Notes under the pieces: generated by a model | What the model saw: only the letters and a program-made list of their open reading frames with translations | Databases searched by the model: none | Told to the model about the DNA's origin: nothing | Part shown: positions 5,568 through 44,904 of the stretch, one piece after another | Layout: the number at the start of each line of letters is the position of its first letter | How positions within the stretch are numbered: the stretch's first letter is position 1 | Assembly (NCBI GenBank): GCA_019720975.1 | Contig: JAGVSJ010000009.1 | Span: 4,065 to 68,064, forward strand | Length of the DNA stretch: 64,000 nt | From: Candidatus Sysuiplasma superficiale | GTDB lineage: Archaea > Thermoplasmatota > Thermoplasmata > Sysuiplasmatales > Sysuiplasmataceae | Direction: 5' to 3' | Position numbers and translations under genes: made by a program

Positions 5568-6487
5568 TTCACGGGGATGATATTCTGATTTGTGGCCAAG
5601 GTCAGCTAAACTACATGAGATCGCAGGTCATAAGCGAGCTCAGATATTCATCCTTTTGCGGCTACAGTGCGTCCATTGACGACATACAGAACAGGCTCTG
5701 TGGAGCTGACAGGGAGCTTATCCAGCACTGCAGCAACGCAATAACTTCGCTCTTGAATGAAGGGGCTATCAAATTCGATGGGAAGGCATTGAGTCTTTCT
5801 GCGGATGGCAGTACCGCCAGAAATTATCTTGATGACAGAAGAAGGGCTGAAGAGAGATATCGCTTTGCTTCCCAGTTCCTGAACGATGCACTTGCAGATA
5901 TTCCTGATGTTCTTCTTGCTGGGATAGGCGGCTCTGTATCCTACGGTACGGCTCGGGAAGATGATGATGTGGACATAGTAATAGTCTCAAGGGATGGAGC
6001 ACTATGGAATGTTCTGTGGAGACTCCTTCTTGATGCCAGAAAGACAAGAAAGGGATCCCCTGACAAACCATTGCTGTGCTTTAGCTACTGCATCGAGGAC
6101 AGCGCCTTCAGAGTGGAGACTGCGACCCACAGGAGCAGGCTTTTTGCAAGCGACTTCCTGAACATGAAGGTGGTGAAAGGAGAGGGGTATTACGCCGAAA
6201 TTCTCAGAGAGAATGAATGGATGGCTTCCTACTATCCTGGATACTACCGCAGGGCAAGGACAGGCAGCAAGGGAGGGCCAGCGCCTTCAGCCATGAAAAC
6301 TAGACCGGATGTCACGAAATATGCTGTTGCCGGTACCTACCTTAAACTTTCAGCAACTGTCAGAAACATACTTTTCAGACTGAGAGGAATGAATGATTCT
6401 GACTTCAGTGCAATAATCAGGCATGACAGATGTATTTACCAGTCATCCAAGTGGAAGAGACTTGAGATGCTGGACAGTCATAAGTGA
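5564..6487 (+). CDS. nucleotidyltransferase-fold protein with N-terminal wHTH-like region
   Basis: Pol-beta-type NTase signature GIGGSVSYGTAREDDDVDIVIV (G[GS]-x9-13-DxD). ATG 5564 overlaps the GT2 stop (ATGA). An alternative TTG start lies at 5558. Confidence 0.55.
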   Translation: MIHGDDILICGQGQLNYMRSQVISELRYSSFCGYSASIDDIQNRLCGADRELIQHCSNAITSLLNEGAIKFDGKALSLSADGSTARNYLDDRRRAEERYRFASQFLNDALADIPDVLLAGIGGSVSYGTAREDDDVDIVIVSRDGALWNVLWRLLLDARKTRKGSPDKPLLCFSYCIEDSAFRVETATHRSRLFASDFLNMKVVKGEGYYAEILRENEWMASYYPGYYRRARTGSKGGPAPSAMKTRPDVTKYAVAGTYLKLSATVRNILFRLRGMNDSDFSAIIRHDRCIYQSSKWKRLEMLDSHK

Positions 6488-34431: not shown

Positions 34432-34634
34432 AGGGAACAGGCACTGGGGATCGTGACTCGCATTCTCTTGAAGTGGAAGCTGACGGATCAGCATTCCTGC
34501 CTGCTCTTGTCTTTACCCCCTTCGATGGCGTCGTGACAGTGTTGGTGATCCTTGTTCTCCTGCTCCTGTTCATCATCTGGAGGAGGCGGAACAGAAGAAA
34601 GAATAGGGGGAATTCTGTCTATCTCTTCCATTAG
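34428..34634 (+). CDS. small single-TM protein
   Basis: ATG 34428 overlaps the methyltransferase stop (ATGA). 68 aa with one strongly hydrophobic helix followed by RRRNRRKNR. Confidence 0.3.
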   Translation: MKGTGTGDRDSHSLEVEADGSAFLPALVFTPFDGVVTVLVILVLLLLFIIWRRRNRRKNRGNSVYLFH

Positions 34635-35065
34635 AGCTGTGTGCCGTCTGAAAGCTCTTCCTGAATGAACTTGCCGCTGTCTGATAGGCGCCATGAACGC
34701 ATGCCAGCAGGTGAACCGTTCATAACACTGATTATGAAATATGAGTAGCCGGGCCAAGCGTTGTTTCTGTCAAACTCCGAGGGTACCGGCGGATGATCCG
34801 GATGGGAGTGGTAGTAGCCGAGTATCTTTTTGCCTGCGGAGTGTACTGACTGCTCCATTTTCAATATCTCACGGGGTTCAATGGTGTAGCGCGTTCTCTT
34901 TGAATTCGCAGCTGCATTCACGGCACGCACCGCGTCGCTGACAGTCCTGATGCCTCTTTTGGCATCCTCTGTTCCGATAAGGAAACCGCAGCATTCCTCG
35001 GGATATGTTTCGGATGCATGAACAATGATCTCCTTCAGGATGCTGGATTGCATTTGAAGCGACAT
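34631..35065 (-). CDS. JAMM/MPN+ metalloprotease (Mec+/desampylase-like)
   Basis: Complete JAMM signature: EECCG (catalytic Glu) and HSHPDHPPVPSEFD (HxH-x7-S-xx-D). It is the last gene of the suf/Ubl operon. Confidence 0.85.
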   Translation of the reverse strand: MSLQMQSSILKEIIVHASETYPEECCGFLIGTEDAKRGIRTVSDAVRAVNAAANSKRTRYTIEPREILKMEQSVHSAGKKILGYYHSHPDHPPVPSEFDRNNAWPGYSYFIISVMNGSPAGMRSWRLSDSGKFIQEELSDGTQL

Positions 35066-35100
35066 TGACTGTCTGCCCTCGGTTATGCCTGAAGGCGGAA

Positions 35101-36348
35101 TCAGGCAAATACCTTTCTGACCTCATCGAGTGCGTCGATAAGGGCATCAACATCCCTCTTCCCGTTGTAAAGATAGAAGGATGCGCGCGACGCTGATGAT
35201 ATTCCAAGCCTTTCCATCAGTGGTTGGGCACAGTGGTGTCCTGACCTGATGGAAACGCCCCTTCTTCCCAGTATTTCGGCAGTGTCATGCCCATGGACCC
35301 CTTTCAGGTTGAAGGCGATTACACCGCTCCTCTGCTCGATATCGTGTGGCCCGTATATCTCTATGTCATCTGATTCACCCAGGCGCGACAGCGCGTAGGA
35401 AATAAGATGCCTGTCGTATCTTTCAACATTCTCCATTCCAATGGCAGAGAGATAGTCCACCGCAGCCCCCAGACCGATTGCCCCTATTATGTTTGGCGTC
35501 CCGGCTTCGAATTTATATGGCGGCACATTCCACGTGCATCCGTTCTGGTGAACCTCACTTATCATTTCGCCGCCTCCAAGTGCCGGTTCAATCTTTCTGA
35601 GGAGATCGTACCTTCCATAAAGTGCACCAATGCCTGTAGGTGCCAGCATTTTGTGGCCCGAAAGTGCAAAGAAATCGCAGCCGATCTTCCTGACATCTAC
35701 TGGTATGTGTGGTGCCGACTGTGCTCCGTCCACAATCAGGAGGGATGAATTGTCATGAGCCATATCGGCTATTTCCCTTACCGGATTTATTGTACCGAGA
35801 ACGTTGGAAACATGAGCGACTGAAACTATCTTTGTCCTCCCCGTAAGCTTTGTGGCAAAATCGTCCATGTCAATCTGCCCCTCACTGTCGATATCTGCAA
35901 ACTTAAGCCTCACTCCCTTCCAAGAGAGCATCTGCCATGGGACAACGTTTGAATGATGTTCCATTACTGTGGTGAGCACCTCATCCCCCGGCTTGAGCTG
36001 CCAGATGCCCAGGCTCAGTGCAAGCACATTCAGCGCCTCTGTGGTGCCACGAAGGAATACGATCTCATCGGCAGATTCTGAATTGATGAAGCCCGCAACT
36101 TTCTTTCTCGCCCCTTCATAACGCTCGGTTGCATCCTCGCTGAGGGGGTAAATGCCGCGGTGGACATTCGCATTGTATTTTCTTTCAAACTCGCAAACAG
36201 CATCAATGACCTGCCTGGGCTTCTGGCTGGTGGCCGCACTGTCAAGATACACCAGTCCCTCCTTTCTCTCTGAAAAGATGGGGAAATCCGCCGCAAGCGG
36301 CGAAATGTCAGGCAGCGCATCAGGAAGCTTGGTGACCACTCGCATCAC
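35101..36348 (-). CDS. sufS: cysteine desulfurase, SufS type (class II)
   Basis: SGHKMLAPTGIGALYG (PLP Lys), RSGHHCAQPL (active-site Cys loop) and the overall SufS/CsdA pattern. Confidence 0.92.
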   Translation of the reverse strand: MMRVVTKLPDALPDISPLAADFPIFSERKEGLVYLDSAATSQKPRQVIDAVCEFERKYNANVHRGIYPLSEDATERYEGARKKVAGFINSESADEIVFLRGTTEALNVLALSLGIWQLKPGDEVLTTVMEHHSNVVPWQMLSWKGVRLKFADIDSEGQIDMDDFATKLTGRTKIVSVAHVSNVLGTINPVREIADMAHDNSSLLIVDGAQSAPHIPVDVRKIGCDFFALSGHKMLAPTGIGALYGRYDLLRKIEPALGGGEMISEVHQNGCTWNVPPYKFEAGTPNIIGAIGLGAAVDYLSAIGMENVERYDRHLISYALSRLGESDDIEIYGPHDIEQRSGVIAFNLKGVHGHDTAEILGRRGVSIRSGHHCAQPLMERLGISSASRASFYLYNGKRDVDALIDALDEVRKVFA

Positions 36349-36650
36349 ACATCCACATAAATTTCGTTGCCATCAACCCTTACACTGTATGTCCTGAGAG
36401 GTTCGGTTGCAGGAGGGTTTTCAACCTCGCCAGTCTCCACATTGAATCTGGAAAGATGAAGAGGACACACTATTGAATTGCCTGAGAGTATCCCTCTTGA
36501 AAGGTCGGCGTCCTCATGCGTGCAGGTCGAATCCAGCGCATGGAAGCTGTCACCGAGACGTATTATCATTATTTGGGAGCCGTCAATTTCAACCTTCCTC
36601 ACGTTGCCTGATGAGAAGTCTTCTGTCGAGGCAGCTCTCCTGAAGGTCAA
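36345..36650 (-). CDS. Rieske [2Fe-2S] ferredoxin-like protein
   Basis: CTHEDADL...CPLH (CxH...CxxH). TTG start 6 nt after the sufD stop. Its stop overlaps the sufS start. Confidence 0.85.
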   Translation of the reverse strand: MTFRRAASTEDFSSGNVRKVEIDGSQIMIIRLGDSFHALDSTCTHEDADLSRGILSGNSIVCPLHLSRFNVETGEVENPPATEPLRTYSVRVDGNEIYVDV

Positions 36651-36656
36651 GGATCA

Positions 36657-38099
36657 TCACCTGTACTTGTAGTGGCCTTCGAAGATATTCTCACCAGGGG
36701 ACTTTATCTGATCTTTGACATATTTTTCGAATTCGAGCTCATCGAGATGGCGCGACGACTGTATCGAAATCGCATTATTCCACTTGTCCTCTATCTGGAA
36801 GCGCAACTTGTCACGTACCGCATCTATTGGTATCCTTGAAATTACAGGATCGAAGAAACCAAGGACAAGGAGTTTTTCCGCATCGTTCCTTTCTATCCCT
36901 CTGGTCTGAAGGTAGTAAAGCTGCTGTTCATCCATCTGGGAAACGGAGGCTGAATGTGTTGCCTTCACACCGTTTGTGAGTATCTCCAGCCCGGGTATCG
37001 CATCGCATTTTGAGTCCCTGCTCAACAGCATCCCGTGTTCAGCAAGGTAAGCGCTGGTATTGGATGCCTTTTCGCCTATCCTTATCATTCCGCGCAGGAG
37101 TGCCCTCGATCTGTCGCGCAGAACGCTTCTGACAGTGACCCTTCCACTTGTAGACTCCACATTGTGGTGCAGGTCTGTGACAATGTCAAACTTCTGTTTG
37201 CCTCCCGAAAAGAGTATTTCGTAATCATCTGTGGAAGCTCCCTGGCCCTCAAAATCTGTGTCAGACCTTGCCCTTGTTATGTCACCACCCATATAGCTTG
37301 AGACCCAGTGCATCCTGCTCTCACGCATTGCAATGGCACGTTTGTTTGAAAGATAGACAGTCCCAGCCGAGAGATTCTCAAGTGAAGCGTGATGCAGTTC
37401 AGCACCATGGGAAAGGTGGACGTCGGTTACGGAAGAGTAAAGGGACAGGCCGCTGACACCCTCCTCAGAATATATCTCTTCGATGACATTCGCGCTGCTT
37501 CCTTCCTCCAGACGAACTATGTTCTGGTGGAAGCCCGCCTTCCCCGCACCATTTTCTATGTATACCACATGAACTGGTGCTTCCAGATGCGTGTTTCTTG
37601 GAACATAGAGGAAATAGCCTGAGGTGAAGAAGGCGTTGTTCAGTGCAACGTATATGTCATCCTCCGGCTTAAGGCCCTTAAGCCTGAAGGATTCTTCTGC
37701 AATGTCGGCATGTTTTGCCACAGCATCCTTCATCTCCTCAAAAATGACGCCGCGTGGAAGAGATTTTGACCGGTAGAACGCACCACCATAGTGTATCATG
37801 AAGATACTCTTTCCCTCCTCACCCGCAAGCTCCACATACCTTTCCGGCACGGCTGGTAACTCCGAAGGCACTTTCGCGGGCGTGAGTCCGGAGGCGTCGA
37901 ATCTGGTAAGTGACTCATACTTTGTGTACAGTGGATTCGGTTCAGGCCTTGACTGGCGGAAAACAGCAAGGGAGCGTCTCCTGTACTCAGAAAGCCATGC
38001 GGGTTCCATGTTGAATGAGGGGAGCTCGGATTCTCCCGTGTTCATTATGTCCTGTGTCATTGCTGTCATGGCAGACTGGCACCTCCTTCGAAATTTCAC
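36657..38099 (-). CDS. sufD: Fe-S cluster assembly protein SufD
   Basis: SufB/SufD beta-helix family, lacking the SufB N-terminal Cys region. The GTG start overlaps the sufB stop (GTGA). Confidence 0.85.
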
Positions 38100-39502
38100 C
38101 CTACTGAACCTGTCATCTCAAGCTGTATAAGCCTATTCAGCTCCACCGCGTACTCCATTGGCAATTCCTTCGAGAAGACATCGAGAAAACCCATGACTAT
38201 CATGTTGAGAGCGTCTGCTTCCGTGAGTCCCCTTGACATGAGGTAGAAAAGCTGTTCCTCGCTTATCTTGCCTACAGTTGCCTCATGCGTGGTTGAGGCT
38301 GTCTCCTCATTGATTGTATTGTACGGATAAGTGTCGGTCCTCGACTTTTCATCAAGCAGGAGGGCGTCGCACCTAACACTGCTCTTTGAGTTGTGTGCAC
38401 CTTTTTCAATGTGCAGAAGGCCACGGTAGGTAGTCCTGCCTCCATCCTTGCTCACGCTCTTCGATGTTATTCTCGATGTTGTTTCAGGCGCAAAATGCAG
38501 TATCTTCGCGCCTGCATCCTGATGCTGCCCTCTACCTGCAAATGCAATTGAAATGACCTCACCCTTGGCTCTCGGTCCGAGGAGATACACGGAAGGGTAT
38601 TTCATTGTCAGCTTCGAACCGATGTTGCCATCTATCCACTCCACCGTTGCATCTTCGTGTGCGAACGCCCTCTTTGTTACCAGGTTATAGACATTGTTTG
38701 ACCAGTTCTGAATGGTTGTGTAGCGAACATACGCTCCCTTCTTCGCTATAATCTCCACAACAGCAGAGTGCAGTGAGTCCTTCGAATAGATGGGTGCGGT
38801 GCACCCTTCGATGTAATGTATCCGACTGTTCTTCTCCGCAACTATCAGTGTCCTCTCGAACTGACCTACACTCTTGGCATTGATTCTGAAATAGGCCTGG
38901 AGAGGGATGTCAACCTCAACACCTTCCGGGACGTAGATGAAGCTCCCACCGCTCCAGACGGCGCTGTTTAGTGCTGCGAATTTGTTGTCCTCGGGCGGAA
39001 TAACAGTGCCGAAATGCTCTCTGAATATGTCAGGGTATTCCTTGAGACCTTCATCCGTCCCAAGGAATATGACGCCCTTCTTGCTGAGATCCTCTCTTAT
39101 CTTATGATATACCACTTCGCTGTCATACTGTGCCCCGACTCCGCCGAGGAATTTCTTCTCTGCCTCAGGTATACCCAGCTTGTCGAATGTCCTCTTGACA
39201 TAGTCAGGAACATCCTCCCAGCTGTCGCTGTTCTTGCCTGAAGGGGCCATGTAATAGTAAATGTCATTGAAATCAATTTCCTTCAGATCGCTTCCCCATG
39301 GCGGAAGAGGCTTCCTGTTGAAAATATCCAGCGATCGGAGTCTGAAATCCCTCATCCACTCCGGTTCCTTCTTGTATCTGGATATGGCTTCCACAACATC
39401 TCTGCTGAGCCCTTTCTGTGTCTGAAACACGTATTTGGCATCCTCATCGTAGAAGCCATACCTGCTGTAGTCACGGTCTATTCCCTGTTCATTCATCACC
39501 AT
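38096..39502 (-). CDS. sufB: Fe-S cluster assembly scaffold SufB
   Basis: Strong SufB pattern ([34 protein letters not shown]...[27 protein letters not shown]). The ORF is open to 39523. ATG 39502 is preceded by AGAGGAAGTGAT. Confidence 0.93.
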
Positions 39503-39553
39503 TTTATCACTTCCTCTTAACATTCATCAAATAGTTCACCTTCATCATTGAAA

Positions 39554-40975
39554 TCAGTAGCGCGGCATTGATGCGTCGACCTTCTCGGCCCATGCATTTA
39601 TACCTCCCTTCAGATTCTTGACCTTTCTGAAGCCTATGTCCTTCAGAAAATTCACGGCATATGCGCTTCTCTGGCCGACCTTGCAGTAGAGTACTATCTC
39701 GTCTGCGGTGTTGAGTTCGTTCACTCTTGCCGGTATATCATTCAGGGGTATCAGCCTGGCTCCCTCTATCCTGCATATGTCCCATTCCTGCGGTTCACGG
39801 ACATCCACCAAAACGATGTTCTCCCCGCTCTTCAGGCGTTTTGCCAGTTCCTCCGCGGTTATTGAGTTCTCATCGTTCTCCCTTTCCGGAGTTATTCCGC
39901 AGAACTGCTCGTAATCAATCAGTTCATGTATTGTCGGCTTCGTGCCACACACTGGGCAGTCAGGATTCTTGCGGAGCTTGAGCTCCTTGAAGCGCATCTT
40001 CATAGCATCGAAGAGCAGCAGCCTCCCTATCAGCGGTTCACCTTCACCGAGTATGAGCTTTATTGCCTCCATTGCCTGCAGTGTGCCGATGGTGCCGGGC
40101 AGTACGCCGACAACACCTCCCTCAGCACACGAAGGCACAAGCCCCGGCGGTGGCGGATTCTCGTAAAGGCACCTGTAGCAGGGCCCTCTCTTTGCGTCAA
40201 AGACAGAAACCTGGCCCTCAAAACGGTATATTGAGCCGTAAACGTTCGGTTTACCCAGCAGGACACATGCATCGTTCACAAGATAGCGTGTCGGGAAATT
40301 GTCTGTTCCGTCAATCACTATATCATACTGTCTTATGATGTCAAGTGCGTTTTCAGATGTCAGCCTGGTTTCGTGCTTGACAACCTGTATGTTGTGGTTT
40401 ATCTCTTTGATCTTCTCTTCTGCAGAATCTATCTTTTTTCTCCCGACGTCCTTCTGCGAATGAATGATCTGCCTCTGCAGGTTGCTGAAATCAACGGTAT
40501 CGAAATCGACTATGCCGAGTGTGCCCACGCCTGCTGCTGCAAGGTAAAGCAGAAGGGGTGAACCCAGTCCGCCTGCTCCAATTACGAGCACTTTCGCCTT
40601 TCTAAGTTTCAGTTGCCCTCCAAGGCCGACCTCAGGAAGCAGGAGATGCCTGCTGTAGCGCTGTATGTCTTCATATGTGAAATCATTTTCAAGGGTGCTC
40701 GAACCGCCCGCAATGGAGGGTATTATTGATATCACATCCCCCTCCTTTACGGCCGTCTTTTCCCTCTCAAGGTACCGTATATCCTCCTCGTTCAGGTACA
40801 CATTCACAAAATTCCTCATTTTTCCGTTTTCATCAAACAGATGGCGCTTCAGCTGAACGCTTGTATCCGCCACTTTGCGCAGGACTTCGTCTACAGATTC
40901 GCCATCAACAACAATCGTATCGCTGTTTCCGACGTATTGTCTAAGGGGTGTCGGTATCATCACCTTAACTTTCAC
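39554..40975 (-). CDS. fusion protein: MoaD/CysO-like beta-grasp (ends ...IPSIAGG) + MoeB/ThiF-type E1 adenylyltransferase + rhodanese
   Basis: Residues 1-91 (VKVKVMIPTPLRQYVG...VNVYLNEEDI...KEGDVISIIPSIAGG) fit the archaeal MoaD/SAMP/CysO pattern with a di-glycine at 90-91 (codons 40703-40708). Next comes RYSRHLLLPEVG, VLVIGAGGLGS, CYRC...SCAEGGVVG...CPVCG (E1), followed by the rhodanese loop CKVGQRS. GTG 40975 is preceded by GGGAGG at 7-nt spacing and overlaps the cysM stop (GTGA). The ORF-track extension to 41077 runs through cysM and is discounted. Confidence 0.85.
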   Translation of the reverse strand: MKVKVMIPTPLRQYVGNSDTIVVDGESVDEVLRKVADTSVQLKRHLFDENGKMRNFVNVYLNEEDIRYLEREKTAVKEGDVISIIPSIAGGSSTLENDFTYEDIQRYSRHLLLPEVGLGGQLKLRKAKVLVIGAGGLGSPLLLYLAAAGVGTLGIVDFDTVDFSNLQRQIIHSQKDVGRKKIDSAEEKIKEINHNIQVVKHETRLTSENALDIIRQYDIVIDGTDNFPTRYLVNDACVLLGKPNVYGSIYRFEGQVSVFDAKRGPCYRCLYENPPPPGLVPSCAEGGVVGVLPGTIGTLQAMEAIKLILGEGEPLIGRLLLFDAMKMRFKELKLRKNPDCPVCGTKPTIHELIDYEQFCGITPERENDENSITAEELAKRLKSGENIVLVDVREPQEWDICRIEGARLIPLNDIPARVNELNTADEIVLYCKVGQRSAYAVNFLKDIGFRKVKNLKGGINAWAEKVDASMPRY

Positions 40976-41904
40976 AGATTCGCCTCCCAAAACCTCTCTC
41001 CAAGGTAGCGCTGCCCACTGTCGGGGAAAACAGTGACCACACTGCACTTTCCCTCCCTCCTGAAAATATCTTCGCAAGCCTTCAATGCGGCTCCGGAACT
41101 CACGCCGAGGAGCAGCCCTTCCTTCCTTGCAGCCGTGATCACCATTCTCTGTGCATCCTCTGTCTTCACATAGATGTGCTCGTCCGCAAGCGTCTCATCG
41201 TAAATGCCGGGCCTTATTGATGAATCCATTCTCTTCAGTCCCTCTATGCCGTGAAGAGGGCTGTCGGGCTCAACAGCCACTGCAGTCAGAGAGGGGATCT
41301 TCTCCTTGAGAAATTTTGCTGTGCCTGTGAACGTGCCTCCTGTTCCAACACCGGCAACGAAATAGTCTATTTTGCCACCGGTCTGCCTGAGTATTTCCTG
41401 ACCTGTTCCGTCATAATGTGCCCTCCAGTTGCTGCTGTTGTTGTATTGGTCTGCATAGTAGTACATGCCCGGATTTTCATCATCAAGCTTTTTCGCTAGT
41501 CTCTGAGCGCCATCGGTCCCCTCCATCGGATCACTGAGAACAACCTCTGCGCCGTACGCCCTCAGCATTTCAAGCTTTTCCTTGCCTATGTTTCGCGGAA
41601 CCACGATGCAGGACCTTATGCCCTTTACCGCACAGATCATCGCGTATGCAATGCCCGTGTTCCCGGATGATGCATCCAGCAAAATCTTCCCGTCCGAAAG
41701 GGAGCCTCTGCGCAGTGCATCTTCGATTATCCTGAGCGCTGCCCTATCCTTCACACTGCCACCGGGATTGAACCATTCTGCCTTTGCATAGAGCTCAGCT
41801 CCGCCCTGCAGTTCCATAATCCTCCCGAGTCTGAGAAGCGGTGTGTTACCTATCTTCGAGAGTATGTCTTCGCCGTACTGCGACTTCAGTTCAGTGCATA
41901 TCAT
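40972..41904 (-). CDS. cysM: CysM-type cysteine synthase / O-phosphoserine sulfhydrylase (PLP fold type II)
   Basis: GNTPLL, PGGSVKDR (PLP Lys), SSGNTG and GVGTGGTFTG. The region QYNNSSNWRAHYDGTGQEI and the loop VEPDSPLHGIEGLKRM align by eye with M. tuberculosis CysM rather than CysK. Confidence 0.8.
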   Translation of the reverse strand: MICTELKSQYGEDILSKIGNTPLLRLGRIMELQGGAELYAKAEWFNPGGSVKDRAALRIIEDALRRGSLSDGKILLDASSGNTGIAYAMICAVKGIRSCIVVPRNIGKEKLEMLRAYGAEVVLSDPMEGTDGAQRLAKKLDDENPGMYYYADQYNNSSNWRAHYDGTGQEILRQTGGKIDYFVAGVGTGGTFTGTAKFLKEKIPSLTAVAVEPDSPLHGIEGLKRMDSSIRPGIYDETLADEHIYVKTEDAQRMVITAARKEGLLLGVSSGAALKACEDIFRREGKCSVVTVFPDSGQRYLGERFWEANL

Positions 41905-42280
41905 TTTTCACGCCTCCGGCAGAGACCGTCTCCTGGAGTGTTTTGAGCGAAAGAGTAGCGCATTTCATCCTCACAGCACTGAGCGGTATATGGAGCATTT
42001 CCTTCACATAATCGGGTGAGAGCCTCTCTATTTCTTCCAACTTCATTCCCTTTATCCTGTCCGTGAGCATTGAAGCGGAGGCCTGGCTTATAGCACATCC
42101 GCGTCCGTCGAACGATACATCCTCGATTATGTCATTTTTTATCTTTAGGTAAATCGTTATGTCGTCACCGCACACAGGATTGTTTCCGTGCCCGAAGAGA
42201 TCGGGATGATCCATCGCCCCCTTATTGTGAGGGCTTTTGTAATGCTCGATTATTTCCTCCTGATAGATGTCGAATCCCAT
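41891..42280 (-). CDS. sufU: SufU/IscU-family (NifU N-terminal domain) sulfur-transfer/scaffold protein
   Basis: Three conserved Cys in NPVCGD, GCAIS and RMKCATLS. Lys rather than His precedes the third Cys, as in SufU. It lacks the long Bacillus SufU insertion. Confidence 0.8.
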   Translation of the reverse strand: MGFDIYQEEIIEHYKSPHNKGAMDHPDLFGHGNNPVCGDDITIYLKIKNDIIEDVSFDGRGCAISQASASMLTDRIKGMKLEEIERLSPDYVKEMLHIPLSAVRMKCATLSLKTLQETVSAGGVKNDMH

Positions 42281-42293
42281 TTTTACACTCCAT

Positions 42294-43058
42294 TCAGTTT
42301 GTCAACTCAGGTTCTCTTAGCCAGTCATATCCCTTCTCCTCAAGTTCCCTGGCGAGTTCCTTTCCTCCGCTCTTCACAATCCTTCCGTCAACCACGACAT
42401 GAACAAATTGCGGCGTGATGTACTGGAGAAGCCTCTGATAATGTGTGACAAGTATGAGGCCGATGTTCGGACCCGCCATCGAGTTTATTGCTGTTGCAAC
42501 TATCTTCAGGGAGTCAATATCCAGGCCGCTGTCTGTCTCGTCCAGTATACCGAACTTTGGCTGGAGTATGGCCATCTGCAGAACCTCAGCCCGTTTCTTT
42601 TCACCGCCGGAAAAGCCCTCATTGAGTGACCGGCCAATGAAATTTTCATCAATGCCGAGCTGATTGACCTTTTCTTTCAGAAGTTTGAAAAATTTAGTCG
42701 GGCTGAGAGGTGAGTTCGGATGTGAACTGTTGTACGCTATCCTGAGGAAATTGCCCAGTCTTACGCCTGGTACCTCTACAGGGTACTGAAAGCCCAAGAA
42801 AAGGCCCGCACGTGCCCTCTTGTCAGCTGTCAATGAGAGTACGTCCTGCCCATCAAGGAGCACCTGCCCTCCGGTGATCTGGTATTTGGGATGTCCCATG
42901 AGCGCATAGCTCATTGTGCTTTTTCCAGAACCGTTGGGGCCCATGATCGCATGGATTTCACCCTGCCTGACTGTGAGATTTATGCCCTTAAGTATCTGTT
43001 TGCCCTCTATACTTACCTTGAGATCTCTGATAACCAGTTCCGATGTCATTGTATTCAT
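42294..43058 (-). CDS. sufC: Fe-S cluster assembly ATPase SufC
   Basis: Walker A GPNGSGKST, signature FSGGEKKR, Walker B ILDETDSGLD and the SufC-typical HYQRLL. Confidence 0.93.
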   Translation of the reverse strand: MNTMTSELVIRDLKVSIEGKQILKGINLTVRQGEIHAIMGPNGSGKSTMSYALMGHPKYQITGGQVLLDGQDVLSLTADKRARAGLFLGFQYPVEVPGVRLGNFLRIAYNSSHPNSPLSPTKFFKLLKEKVNQLGIDENFIGRSLNEGFSGGEKKRAEVLQMAILQPKFGILDETDSGLDIDSLKIVATAINSMAGPNIGLILVTHYQRLLQYITPQFVHVVVDGRIVKSGGKELARELEEKGYDWLREPELTN

Positions 43059-43158: not shown

Positions 43159-43815
43159 ATGATGGTATATTACCTGACAACGATGGAAAAGGAGCTCTCC
43201 CTTCTAGGTGAATCAAAAACTAAACTGATCACCCTTCTGGGTGAAGGAGAGAAATCCGGACAGGAGCTCGCAAGGCTCATGGGTATCAATACAACGGCCA
43301 TAAGGGAGCATACCGATACACTGGAAAGACTGGGCCTAGTATCTTCAAGGTTTGTTCATCTCGGGGTCGGAAGGCCAAAAAAGATGTATAGGCTGACACC
43401 GGCAGGAATTGAACTCCTGCCAAAGCACTATGATGAACTTCTCAATCTTCTGCTCAGAAAGATTCATGACAAAGGCGGTAACATACTCCTGAGCCAGCTA
43501 ATATCGGATGTTGTTAGGGAGTTCAAGTCCGAGTGTGATGAATGTCAGTCCGAGACGCTGGAAAAGCGCATTGAAAACGCTGTAAACTTCCTCAACAAAC
43601 TTGGGTTCATGGCCACGGTTGAAAGGGACGGGGGTAAAACGTTTGTAGTAAGGCATAACTGCATTTTCAACAAGACGGCGAAGCTGTATTCGGGAATACT
43701 GTGCAGCGAATGTGATACATCTTTTGTGAAGGAACCAATAGGGAGCTCAAATATTGAGCTTATCTCCTGCATAGGAAAGGGGGACACATCCTGCAGGAAT
43801 CTTATAAAATCCTAG
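43159..43815 (+). CDS. SufR-like (COG2345/ArsR-type) wHTH regulator with Cys-rich C-terminal domain
   Basis: wHTH with GRPKKMYRLTPAG..LLPKHY, typical of COG2345 regulators such as cyanobacterial/actinobacterial SufR. The C-terminal domain carries five Cys (HNC, CSEC, SC, SC). It is divergent from sufC. Confidence 0.6.
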   Translation: MMVYYLTTMEKELSLLGESKTKLITLLGEGEKSGQELARLMGINTTAIREHTDTLERLGLVSSRFVHLGVGRPKKMYRLTPAGIELLPKHYDELLNLLLRKIHDKGGNILLSQLISDVVREFKSECDECQSETLEKRIENAVNFLNKLGFMATVERDGGKTFVVRHNCIFNKTAKLYSGILCSECDTSFVKEPIGSSNIELISCIGKGDTSCRNLIKS

Positions 43816-43890: not shown

Positions 43891-44904
43891 TTGCCTGTGA
43901 TGAAGATAATCCTGTTCAAGATTTGCGTTGTCTTTCTCATAGCTGTGCTTGTTTTGCCTGCACTTACATCAGCGGTTGCACGCGCGGACAATGGCCAGCA
44001 GGACAGGGAAGTGTCTATCCAAACATCTGATAACGGTTATTTCCAGATAGTCTCCAAGCTGCCTGGGCAACCCGGAAATCAGTTTGATCTGCAGTTCGCA
44101 GAAAATACGCTTCTTATGACTTTCAGCAATGGTTCTGATCAGCAGAATGCATCGCTCGAGTTTGCCATAACACTGGATAAACTGATATACACCAATGGCA
44201 CAGGTTCAAACTCAACGCTGATTTCGTTTGAGGATGCCGGCTTCACACTCATGAGCGGCACAATGCTTGCCCCCTATGTCTCCACCTTCAGCAGATCCGT
44301 TTTTGGTGTCATTTCAGAGGCGAAGGGAACAGTCTTCATAATGATAATACAGGTGAATGGAAAGCCTGTCCAGGTTATGTCCCCAGTAGTCAACAAACCT
44401 GTTGAACTCTATCCAAATCAGGTGAAGATTTCCTTCATAATACAGAACGCAGGTATGCCGCAGATACAGTCCGGTACCTATATGAACCAGCAGCCTCCGA
44501 ACATGTTTACCGCAGGCAATATTTCGCTTCTGATGACACTGAGTTCACCCTCAGGATTTCCGGTTCTTTACCAGTCTGCGTCTTCCGTTCAGCTGAATTT
44601 CACTGAGGAAAACAGCACAGGTTATTTCGAATGGAGCCGCAGCGCGTATGTCTATAGCAGCCTTACCCAGAGTGTGTCAGAAAGAAATGTCCTTTTCTCG
44701 CTTGACAAGAGCAGGCTCACACTTGTCTATCCGGCGGCCCAGAGAATAGTTCATGATCCCGTCATCGGCATTTCCCCACAGTCCCTCATAGGCGGAGTGG
44801 TGAACGCGGTGAAGACTGCCGGAAACATAATAATATACAGTATTGCACTGACACTTGCTGCCGTTCTGGTTGCAGGCTCCGTGCTCTACAGACGGAAGCA
44901 CTGA
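43891..44904 (+). CDS. secreted protein with C-terminal membrane anchor
   Basis: N-terminal signal-like helix ending ALTSAVARA and a C-terminal TM followed by RRKH. The start is TTG 43891 or ATG 43900. Confidence 0.45.
   Translation: MPVMKIILFKICVVFLIAVLVLPALTSAVARADNGQQDREVSIQTSDNGYFQIVSKLPGQPGNQFDLQFAENTLLMTFSNGSDQQNASLEFAITLDKLIYTNGTGSNSTLISFEDAGFTLMSGTMLAPYVSTFSRSVFGVISEAKGTVFIMIIQVNGKPVQVMSPVVNKPVELYPNQVKISFIIQNAGMPQIQSGTYMNQQPPNMFTAGNISLLMTLSSPSGFPVLYQSASSVQLNFTEENSTGYFEWSRSAYVYSSLTQSVSERNVLFSLDKSRLTLVYPAAQRIVHDPVIGISPQSLIGGVVNAVKTAGNIIIYSIALTLAAVLVAGSVLYRRKH

Follow-up and report, generated by a model that had tools for sequence, protein, structure and literature searches.

The gene considered here occupies positions 39554..40975 on the minus strand of a 64-kb window (the whole 64,000-nucleotide stretch analysed) from contig JAGVSJ010000009.1 of the archaeon Candidatus Sysuiplasma superficiale. 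It encodes 473 amino acids plus a stop codon in an open frame without ambiguity, and joins in a single chain a CysO-like ubiquitin-like (Ubl) domain, a linker, an E1-type activating enzyme of the MoeB/ThiF family and a rhodanese domain, as recognised by Pfam and by comparison with 120 homologues. Pfam places ThiS at residues 5-91 (42.6 bits with a cut-off of 22.5, E 8.8e-11); ThiF follows at 107-342 with E 1.2e-86, and Rhodanese at 373-464 with E 2.2e-22. An earlier note on this DNA had started the gene at GTG 40975, with a GGGAGG box seven nucleotides upstream and a GTGA overlap with the cysM stop, and had placed the codons of an internal Gly-Gly at 40703-40708. All of this was confirmed on the sequence: the GTG (40975-40973) overlaps the TGA (40974-40972) of the upstream PALP/CysM gene, the box lies at 40988-40983, residues 86-91 read PSIAGG, and the stop codon of the fusion is found at 39554-39556. 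The NCBI model of an identical protein (P0001, 468 amino acids, annotated as "MoeB", from the metagenome-assembled genome of a Thermoplasmata archaeon) begins five codons later at ATG 40960; the GGGAGG box and the alignment of orthologues, which reads MxxKVMIPTPL, led us to prefer the GTG. Relative to the public model, the GTG start (region 40958-40975) adds the first beta-strand residues.

The N-terminal 91 residues (40703..40975, minus strand), ending in A89-G90-G91, constitute a beta-grasp sulfur-carrier domain of the CysO type, and Pfam, phmmer, AlphaFold2 and Foldseek agree in assigning it to the ThiS/MoaD family. In phmmer searches it aligned from end to end with the CysO proteins of M. 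tuberculosis (3dwg_C, residues 1-93 of 93, E 1.4e-12) and Amycolatopsis orientalis (4n6e_B, 90 amino acids, E 4.3e-13), and therefore G91 matches the free C-terminal glycine of the characterised CysO proteins. Foldseek run with the full-length model was swamped by E1 matches, and it was repeated with a model of residues 1-110; the best matches were then the CysO structures 4n6e_B (TM score 0.88) and 3dwg_C (0.84), together with 3dwm, and SAMP1, Urm1 and MoaD ranked after them. The first 91 residues had been described as resembling an archaeal MoaD, SAMP or CysO protein; a beta-grasp carrier ending in GG is indeed present, but its likeness is specifically to CysO and not to MoaD or SAMP proteins in general. 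The expectation of a beta-grasp followed by an exposed GG linker was also borne out, the AlphaFold2 model of residues 1-110 showing a confident fold for residues 1-86 (predicted local distance difference score around 90) and disorder for residues 90-99 (below 50). As encoded, the protein lacks a free C-terminal Gly-Gly, as 382 residues follow G90-G91, and such an end could arise only after proteolysis.

The linker, SSTLENDFTYEDIQ, extends over residues 92-105 (40661..40702, minus strand), and its first bond, G91-S92, is the predicted site of cleavage by a JAMM protease. In an alignment of 20 orthologues A89, G90 and G91 were invariant; the GG and the fusion are conserved, as had been anticipated, and the linker varies. 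Across 120 homologues the distance from the GG to the RYSRH motif of the E1 ranged from 11 to 29 residues with no conservation of sequence, and the residue directly after the GG was S, A, V, N, R, T, I, L or K. An invariant AGG beside a variable, predicted-disordered linker is the pattern that would be expected of a cleavable tail and not of a structural junction. No in-frame ATG, GTG or TTG was found between the GG and the E1 domain of the window gene; the E1 is therefore not separately translatable from within the linker, and on this ground a separate E1 starting there was rejected.

The activating part of the protein comprises an E1-like adenylation domain (approximately residues 106-345; 39941..40660, minus strand), assigned by Pfam ThiF, PDB matches and Foldseek, and a Pfam-assigned rhodanese domain (residues 373-464; 39584..39859, minus strand). 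The motifs that had been reported from the letters alone were all located, namely RYSRHLLLPEVG (residues 106-117), the GAGGLGS nucleotide loop (133-139), the zinc-site pairs C266xxC269 and C340xxC343, SCAEGG (282-287) and the CKVGQRS loop of the rhodanese (431-437), whose Cys codon is at 39683-39685. The RYSRH arginine-finger helix, GAGGLGS, the zinc cysteines and C283 (codon 40127-40129) were invariant among the 20 orthologues, and C431, G434, R436 and S437 of the rhodanese were invariant in the orthologue alignment. Sequence matches in the PDB include Uba4 (6yub), MoeB (1jw9) and ThiF (1zud), and in Foldseek the E1 portion gave TM scores of 0.93-0.95 against ThiF and MoeB. A ThiF/MoeB domain followed by a C-terminal rhodanese with its active-site Cys corresponds to the MoeZ/MoeBR type; among the NCBIfam models, the scores were below the cut-offs for MoeZ NF005902 (527 vs 647) and MoeB NF005646 (537 vs 633) and above them for MoeB NF006444 (493 vs 449) and the subfamily NF004281 (322 vs 266). 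The full-length AlphaFold2 model has a predicted TM score of 0.58, and its inter-domain geometry is too uncertain to place the Ubl on the E1 in cis.

A stop codon stands a few residues after the GG in some related loci, and the window itself belongs to a metagenome-assembled genome; we therefore considered whether the fusion was an artefact of assembly, sequencing or gene calling, and a missed stop or frameshift had in fact been named beforehand as something to be excluded. It was excluded: the identical protein is found on two contigs, ThiS, ThiF and Rhodanese are joined in one chain in all 120 best homologues (63-100% identity; NCBI, ENA, JGI and Logan), and the fused form is present in 54 of 86 loci compared. 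The artefact was accordingly rejected, and we give it practically no probability. Among GTDB species representatives the search gave at least 600 matches, and the fusion occurs in Thermoplasmata and at least 10 bacterial phyla; the taxa among the 80 loci listed include Thermoplasmata, Acidobacteriota, Gemmatimonadota, Bacteroidota, Chloroflexota, Verrucomicrobiota, Armatimonadota, Eisenbacteria, Elusimicrobia and one Cyanobacteriota metagenome-assembled genome, in addition to others. The counts of loci rest on GTDB species representatives, and a 50%-identity library, which contains many frameshifted or truncated metagenome fragments, was used qualitatively.

In 29 of the 86 loci the carrier and the enzyme are split into two genes. 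In 28 of the 29, CysO carries 1-15 residues past the GG (for example GGMY*, GGV*, GGD*, GGC*, GGNGDR* and GGCARRCICR*, the asterisk being the stop), and only one locus, L065, ends in GG-stop. The tails come from loci L011, L019, L020, L025, L031, L041, L043, L044, L054 and L059-L086, at approximately positions 6250-6400 of each, and those of L011 and L078 were read directly. With 28 of 29 split carriers bearing a tail, trimming after the GG would therefore be needed in the split loci too; judging from these sequences it looks general for this CysO clade, the E1 fusion representing the longest "tail". Many of the tails are rich in Cys (GGLNLRCICR*, GGCARRCICR*, GGRPLRCACS*, GGSSCCR*, GGC*), and the GG-Cys tails are chemically identical to CysO-Gly-Cys, the product of the CysM reaction and natural substrate of Mec+. 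The two split genes share a reading frame in 15 of the 29 loci, and in L011 and L078 a single stop codon lies between them. A neighbour-joining tree of the E1 domains mixes fused with split loci, and parsimony requires at least 13 changes of state on it; this figure is indicative only, as the tree was built from rough BLOSUM distances with midpoint rooting and carries no support values. The shared frames and the interspersed states are consistent with frequent stop-to-sense interconversion by point mutation, and the interspersion also fits the view that fused and free carriers are functionally equivalent.

Other fusions of the CysO family that keep an internal AGG were also observed: a tandem CysO-CysO that resembles polyubiquitin, CysO-TusA, CysO-NIL, CysO-rhodanese, CysO-DSP-phosphatase-like and CysO-AbrB/MraZ-like. 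Each of them (P0121, P0263, P0261, P0213, P0215, P0190 and P0178) is a single metagenome representative sequence.

These data bear on the possibility that the beta-grasp domain is never released and stays with the E1 for good, in a structural or regulatory role like that of the N-terminal Ubl of some ThiF proteins (C. jejuni type), while the enzyme serves free MoaD, ThiS or SAMP proteins encoded elsewhere. The idea has precedents, as Ubl-ThiF fusions that co-occur with a stand-alone ThiS have been suggested to play a non-carrier role (Iyer et al. 2006, PMC1779556) and mycobacterial MoeZR serves several carriers (PMC3227635), and the genome was covered here over 64 kb. However, the Ubl of the C. 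jejuni proteins was described as "distinct from ThiS", whereas the window domain is a full-length CysO orthologue; a permanent module would not require an invariant AGG beside a hypervariable, disordered linker; and the same domain is a separate gene in orthologous operons, with fused and split states alternating on the tree. Neither the operon nor the window contains a free CysO: a search of all six-frame open reading frames (ORFs) of at least 40 amino acids in the 64 kb with the domain HMM returned no CysO-like ORF besides the fusion, and the sole ORF in the window shorter than 200 amino acids that ends in GG-stop is a non-homologous fragment of 40 amino acids. We consider a permanent module improbable.

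The carrier, the E1-rhodanese, a pyridoxal phosphate (PLP)-dependent cysteine synthase and a JAMM protease are all encoded within one cluster of the window, a packed set of nine co-directional genes (34631-43058, minus strand) separated by gaps or overlaps of no more than 35 nucleotides, in which the fusion is the fourth gene. The gene immediately upstream (40972..41904, minus strand) encodes a cysteine synthase of the CysM/CysK family (Pfam PALP, E 4e-70) that matches CysM and CysK in the PDB. The last gene of the cluster (34631..35065, minus strand), 4.5 kb downstream of the fusion, encodes a JAMM/MPN+ metalloprotease of 144 amino acids (Pfam Prok-JAB, E 4.8e-26, 91.3 bits against a cut-off of 25), and it is the only JAB-like ORF of the window. 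The operon-encoded JAMM had been put forward as the obvious candidate protease, and translation and alignment to 2kcq revealed an intact motif, E23/E24 ... H86-S-H88-x7-S96-x2-D99 (34769-34810). This protein is a candidate both for cleavage of the precursor and for hydrolysis of CysO-Cys. The other members of the cluster, all on the minus strand and assigned by Pfam, are sufC, an ABC ATPase that is the first gene (42294-43058; ABC_tran), an IscU/NifU_N scaffold (41891-42280; NifU_N), sufB (38096-39523) and sufD (36657-38099), both with SUFBD_core, a Rieske ferredoxin (36345-36650; Rieske) and the cysteine desulfurase SufS (35101-36348; Aminotran_5). The interleaving of CysM, the CysO-E1-rhodanese fusion and the JAMM with a full SUF set implies that cysteine supply is coupled to Fe-S assembly.

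The arrangement is not confined to the window. The order of the nine genes recurs on the related archaeal contig L003, and a compact PALP-JAB-fusion trio was found in bacteria and other Thermoplasmata (L001, L002, L005 and L007). A second organisation is seen in L005, with SUF genes upstream of the trio. A JAB gene lies within 6 kb of the fused gene in 50 of the 54 fused loci, mostly in the order PALP-JAB-fusion, a PALP gene is in the flanks of 48, usually directly upstream, and both accompany the fusion in 47, in bacteria as well as in archaea. The window protein is 63-65% identical to proteins of Acidobacteriota, and on the rough tree the Thermoplasmata fusions (L003, L005 and L007 vs L046, L052 and L056) fall in at least two places among bacteria, which suggests that the PALP-JAB-fusion module moved between domains by horizontal transfer, possibly more than once.

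An archaeal Ubl, E1 and JAMM found together could instead serve mainly a conjugation and deconjugation system similar to SAMPylation, with CysM and the SUF proteins as its targets or simply as neighbours. SAMP1, desampylase and UbaA (the E1 that activates SAMPs) are indeed among the nearest named NCBIfam models, and archaeal SAMPs are both sulfur carriers and protein modifiers (PMC4443979, PMC2948915). Nevertheless, the three scores are below their cut-offs (SAMP1 54.6 vs 60, UbaA 358 vs 450, desampylase 97 vs 130), the best matches of the carrier in both sequence and structure are CysO proteins, the PALP and JAB genes that accompany the fusion in those 47 loci reproduce the mec-cysO-cysM gene set, and sulfur transfer is what a rhodanese domain typically serves. 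SAMPylation as the primary identity of the system was rejected on the sub-cut-off scores and we find it very unlikely; a dual role is conceivable.

Taken together, we propose that the product of the gene is a self-contained precursor in a thiocarboxylate-dependent route to cysteine of the CysO/MoeZ/CysM/Mec+ type, with a carrier that the JAMM releases; to this reading we assign a probability of roughly three in four. The 473-residue chain contains CysO with its internal Gly90-Gly91 joined by a flexible linker of 14 residues to its own E1-rhodanese. The JAMM of the operon would hydrolyse the G91-S92 bond and yield a CysO of ~10 kDa with a C-terminal glycine carboxylate, by the same hydrolysis of a Gly-X alpha-peptide bond that would release cysteine from CysO-Gly-Cys at each turnover; since maturation and every turnover share this chemistry, the fusion would have been cheap to evolve. 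By homology, the E1 would then adenylate Gly91, and a persulfide on Cys431 of the rhodanese, or sulfide, would convert it to the thiocarboxylate CysO-COSH. CysM would join the thiocarboxylate to the PLP-aminoacrylate formed from O-phosphoserine or O-acetylserine, an S-to-N shift would give CysO-Gly-Cys, and the JAMM would free the cysteine and recycle CysO. From the order of the genes, the cysteine probably feeds SufS and SufBCD/IscU of the same cluster. The architecture, its conservation and its operon linkage are direct observations. The computational checks named in the earlier note all turned out as it expected, and release of the carrier after the GG, its interpretation, is further supported by the tails of the split carriers, by the interchange of fused and split states and by the co-location of the JAMM; we infer the cleavage itself, and that a JAMM performs it after the Gly-Gly is suggested by the operon linkage and by the precedents discussed below.

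Several points weigh against this proposal. No experimental study of a CysO-E1 fusion was found in the full-text literature searched, and a free carrier could exist elsewhere, the analysis covering 64 kb of the genome. With E 7e-66 for E. coli CysM and E 6e-49 for M. tuberculosis CysM, the window CysM stands nearer the former; it also scores 329 bits with the NCBIfam cysM model, below the cut-off of 394, and for these two reasons its substrate and its use of CysO-COSH are only putative. The SufS of the operon could make cysteine both the product and the source of sulfur; the scheme would then be circular if sulfide were not the actual donor. Moreover, the co-occurrence of JAB is not by itself proof of precursor processing, because the pathway needs a JAB for CysO-Cys anyway, and 4 of the 54 fused loci have no JAB in their flanks, at least two of these being truncated contigs. 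The last two points also leave room for release by autoproteolysis or by a housekeeping protease, the JAMM then hydrolysing CysO-Cys only, as JAB linkage does not discriminate between the two schemes. On the other hand, no autoprocessing motif is apparent, the variable residue after the GG fits a protease that recognises the body of the Ubl and its GG tail, as JAMMs do, and direct precedents exist in HvJAMM1 and QbsD (PMC4443979, PMC5925218); we therefore see only a slim chance that a protease other than the JAMM frees the carrier.

Within the proposed pathway of JAMM-dependent release, one could tentatively go further and regard the uncleaved fusion as a zymogen, with the Ubl tethered on its own or a partner E1 and both of them inactive until a single cut by the JAMM, although we think this rather doubtful. 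The GG-linker would run past the adenylation site, and the cut would leave a pre-docked 1:1 complex of E1 and CysO. If true, it would provide a post-translational on-switch for the thiocarboxylate-dependent supply of cysteine to SUF Fe-S assembly. More broadly, a clade of prokaryotic sulfur carriers would then have followed, ahead of ubiquitin, a rule of obligatory biogenesis by a precursor and a dedicated protease, in forms such as GG plus tail, GG-E1, the GG-CysO tandem, GG-TusA and similar ones. The advantage suggested in the earlier note, that the fusion fixes a 1:1 stoichiometry of carrier and enzyme, is speculation and is not supported as it was written.

Two genes beyond the cluster may be mentioned. 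A divergently oriented gene (43159-43815, plus strand), which is found in the same place in L003, encodes a protein with an N-terminal helix-turn-helix of the ArsR/PadR type and a Cys-rich C-terminal region, the latter with a weak match to "Methanogen output domain 1" that narrowly misses the cut-off (E 1.5e-4). The protein could regulate the suf/cys operon by sensing sulfur or Fe-S clusters. The ORF at 43891-44904 (plus strand, 337 amino acids) has a signal-like hydrophobic N-terminus and a hydrophobic C-terminal segment, gave no match with Pfam, and may correspond to a secreted or surface-anchored archaeal protein.

The window gene is one member of a large family that is annotated in the databases and mislabelled there as "MoeB". 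Thousands of such proteins bear this annotation, which hides the carrier gene, and pathway reconstructions in Thermoplasmata, Acidobacteriota, Gemmatimonadota and others could wrongly infer that a sulfur carrier is absent. The near-universal tails of CysO suggest that JAMM-dependent maturation is the norm for the clade, which bears on the way in which processing of the deubiquitinating-enzyme type came to be linked to Ubl systems. The placement in a SUF operon suggests on-demand cysteine for Fe-S assembly in an anaerobic archaeon. The principle is already established, with an old prediction of processing and a demonstration in sibling systems, and we are not dealing with a new kind of system. 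Three features were absent from the literature searched: the apparently near-universal trimming after the GG, the repeated toggling between fused and split states, and the embedding of the pathway in a SUF operon of an archaeon.

Burns et al. reportedly described in 2005 the CysO/MoeZR/CysM/Mec+ pathway of cysteine synthesis in M. tuberculosis. The window shares with it a CysO ending in AGG, an E1 with a C-terminal rhodanese, a PLP-dependent cysteine synthase and a JAMM, and in both cases JAB and PALP genes adjoin the carrier gene. In M. tuberculosis, MoeZR thiocarboxylates CysO and Mec+ hydrolyses the CysO-cysteine adduct (PMC3227635). There, CysO is a free protein of 93 amino acids ending in GG and moeZ is unlinked, whereas in the window CysO forms the N-terminal part of the E1 chain and therefore, unlike that of M. 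tuberculosis, would need a maturation cut first. The two also differ in that the host is an archaeon, the genes lie inside a SUF Fe-S operon and the CysM is nearer to that of E. coli.

In the HcyS/HcyD system, a short-tailed sulfur-carrier precursor is trimmed by a JAMM. For QbsE (GG-CF, with QbsD) and CxnE (a decapeptide after the GG, with CxnF), both of them carrier precursors, the same kind of processing is described (PMC5925218). With the three systems the window has in common an internal GG, a JAMM encoded alongside and an E1-rhodanese of the MoeZ type to activate the trimmed carrier; residues past the GG and a JAMM in the same gene cluster, the features of JAMM-processed precursors, are both present. 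However, the tails of QbsE, CxnE and HcyS have 1-10 residues and are not known to have a function, whereas the "tail" in the window is an activating enzyme of 382 residues, and their pathways lead to siderophores, antibiotics and homocysteine instead of cysteine.

Natural Ubl-MoaE fusions were catalogued by Cao et al. 2015, where it was also found that HvJAMM1 cuts a linear SAMP1-MoaE fusion exactly after the GG, both in vitro and in vivo, and that the cut is required for activity (PMC4443979). As in the window, the carrier of these MoaX-type proteins is N-terminal to an enzyme of its own pathway. The Ubl-MoaE fusion is inactive until a JAMM cuts it, as was found in an archaeon. The partner there is the large subunit of molybdopterin synthase, which uses the thiocarboxylate, whereas the E1 of the window makes it, and the SAMP1-MoaE fusion that was assayed with HvJAMM1 was engineered.

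Makarova and Koonin 2010 recorded as a "telling fusion" the "Ubl-E1-TBP" proteins of Thaumarchaeota, which are shared with bacteria (PMC2948915). They too have a Ubl followed by an E1 adenylation domain in a single polypeptide, a likeness drawn by description only; the account consists of one sentence without a rhodanese, an analysis of the GG or linker, or a link to CysM, JAB or SUF. Iyer, Burroughs and Aravind 2006 listed an operon with ThiS/MoaD, E1-rhodanese, JAB and cysteine synthase, and predicted in the same year the release of a fused ThiS/MoaD by JAB (PMC1779556, section 16). The C. jejuni-type ThiF likewise has a beta-grasp domain N-terminal to the ThiF/MoeB Rossmann domain (PMC1779556). 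That Ubl, however, is described as different from ThiS, is found together with a free ThiS and is regarded as a non-carrier, whereas the window domain is a true CysO whose AGG is invariant, and no free paralogue lies close by.

If cleavage were confirmed, the window gene would provide a natural Ubl synthesised within its own E1, with release by a JAMM as an obligatory step, and a prokaryotic parallel to the processing of ubiquitin precursors. In eukaryotes, ubiquitin is made as polyubiquitin or as fusions to ribosomal proteins, and a dedicated protease exposes its glycine before the E1 acts. The window resembles this system in that the Ubl is made with an extension past the GG; the partners of ubiquitin are ribosomal proteins or further ubiquitins and its deubiquitinating enzymes are mostly cysteine proteases, whereas the partner in the window is the E1 itself and the pathway is one of sulfur transfer.

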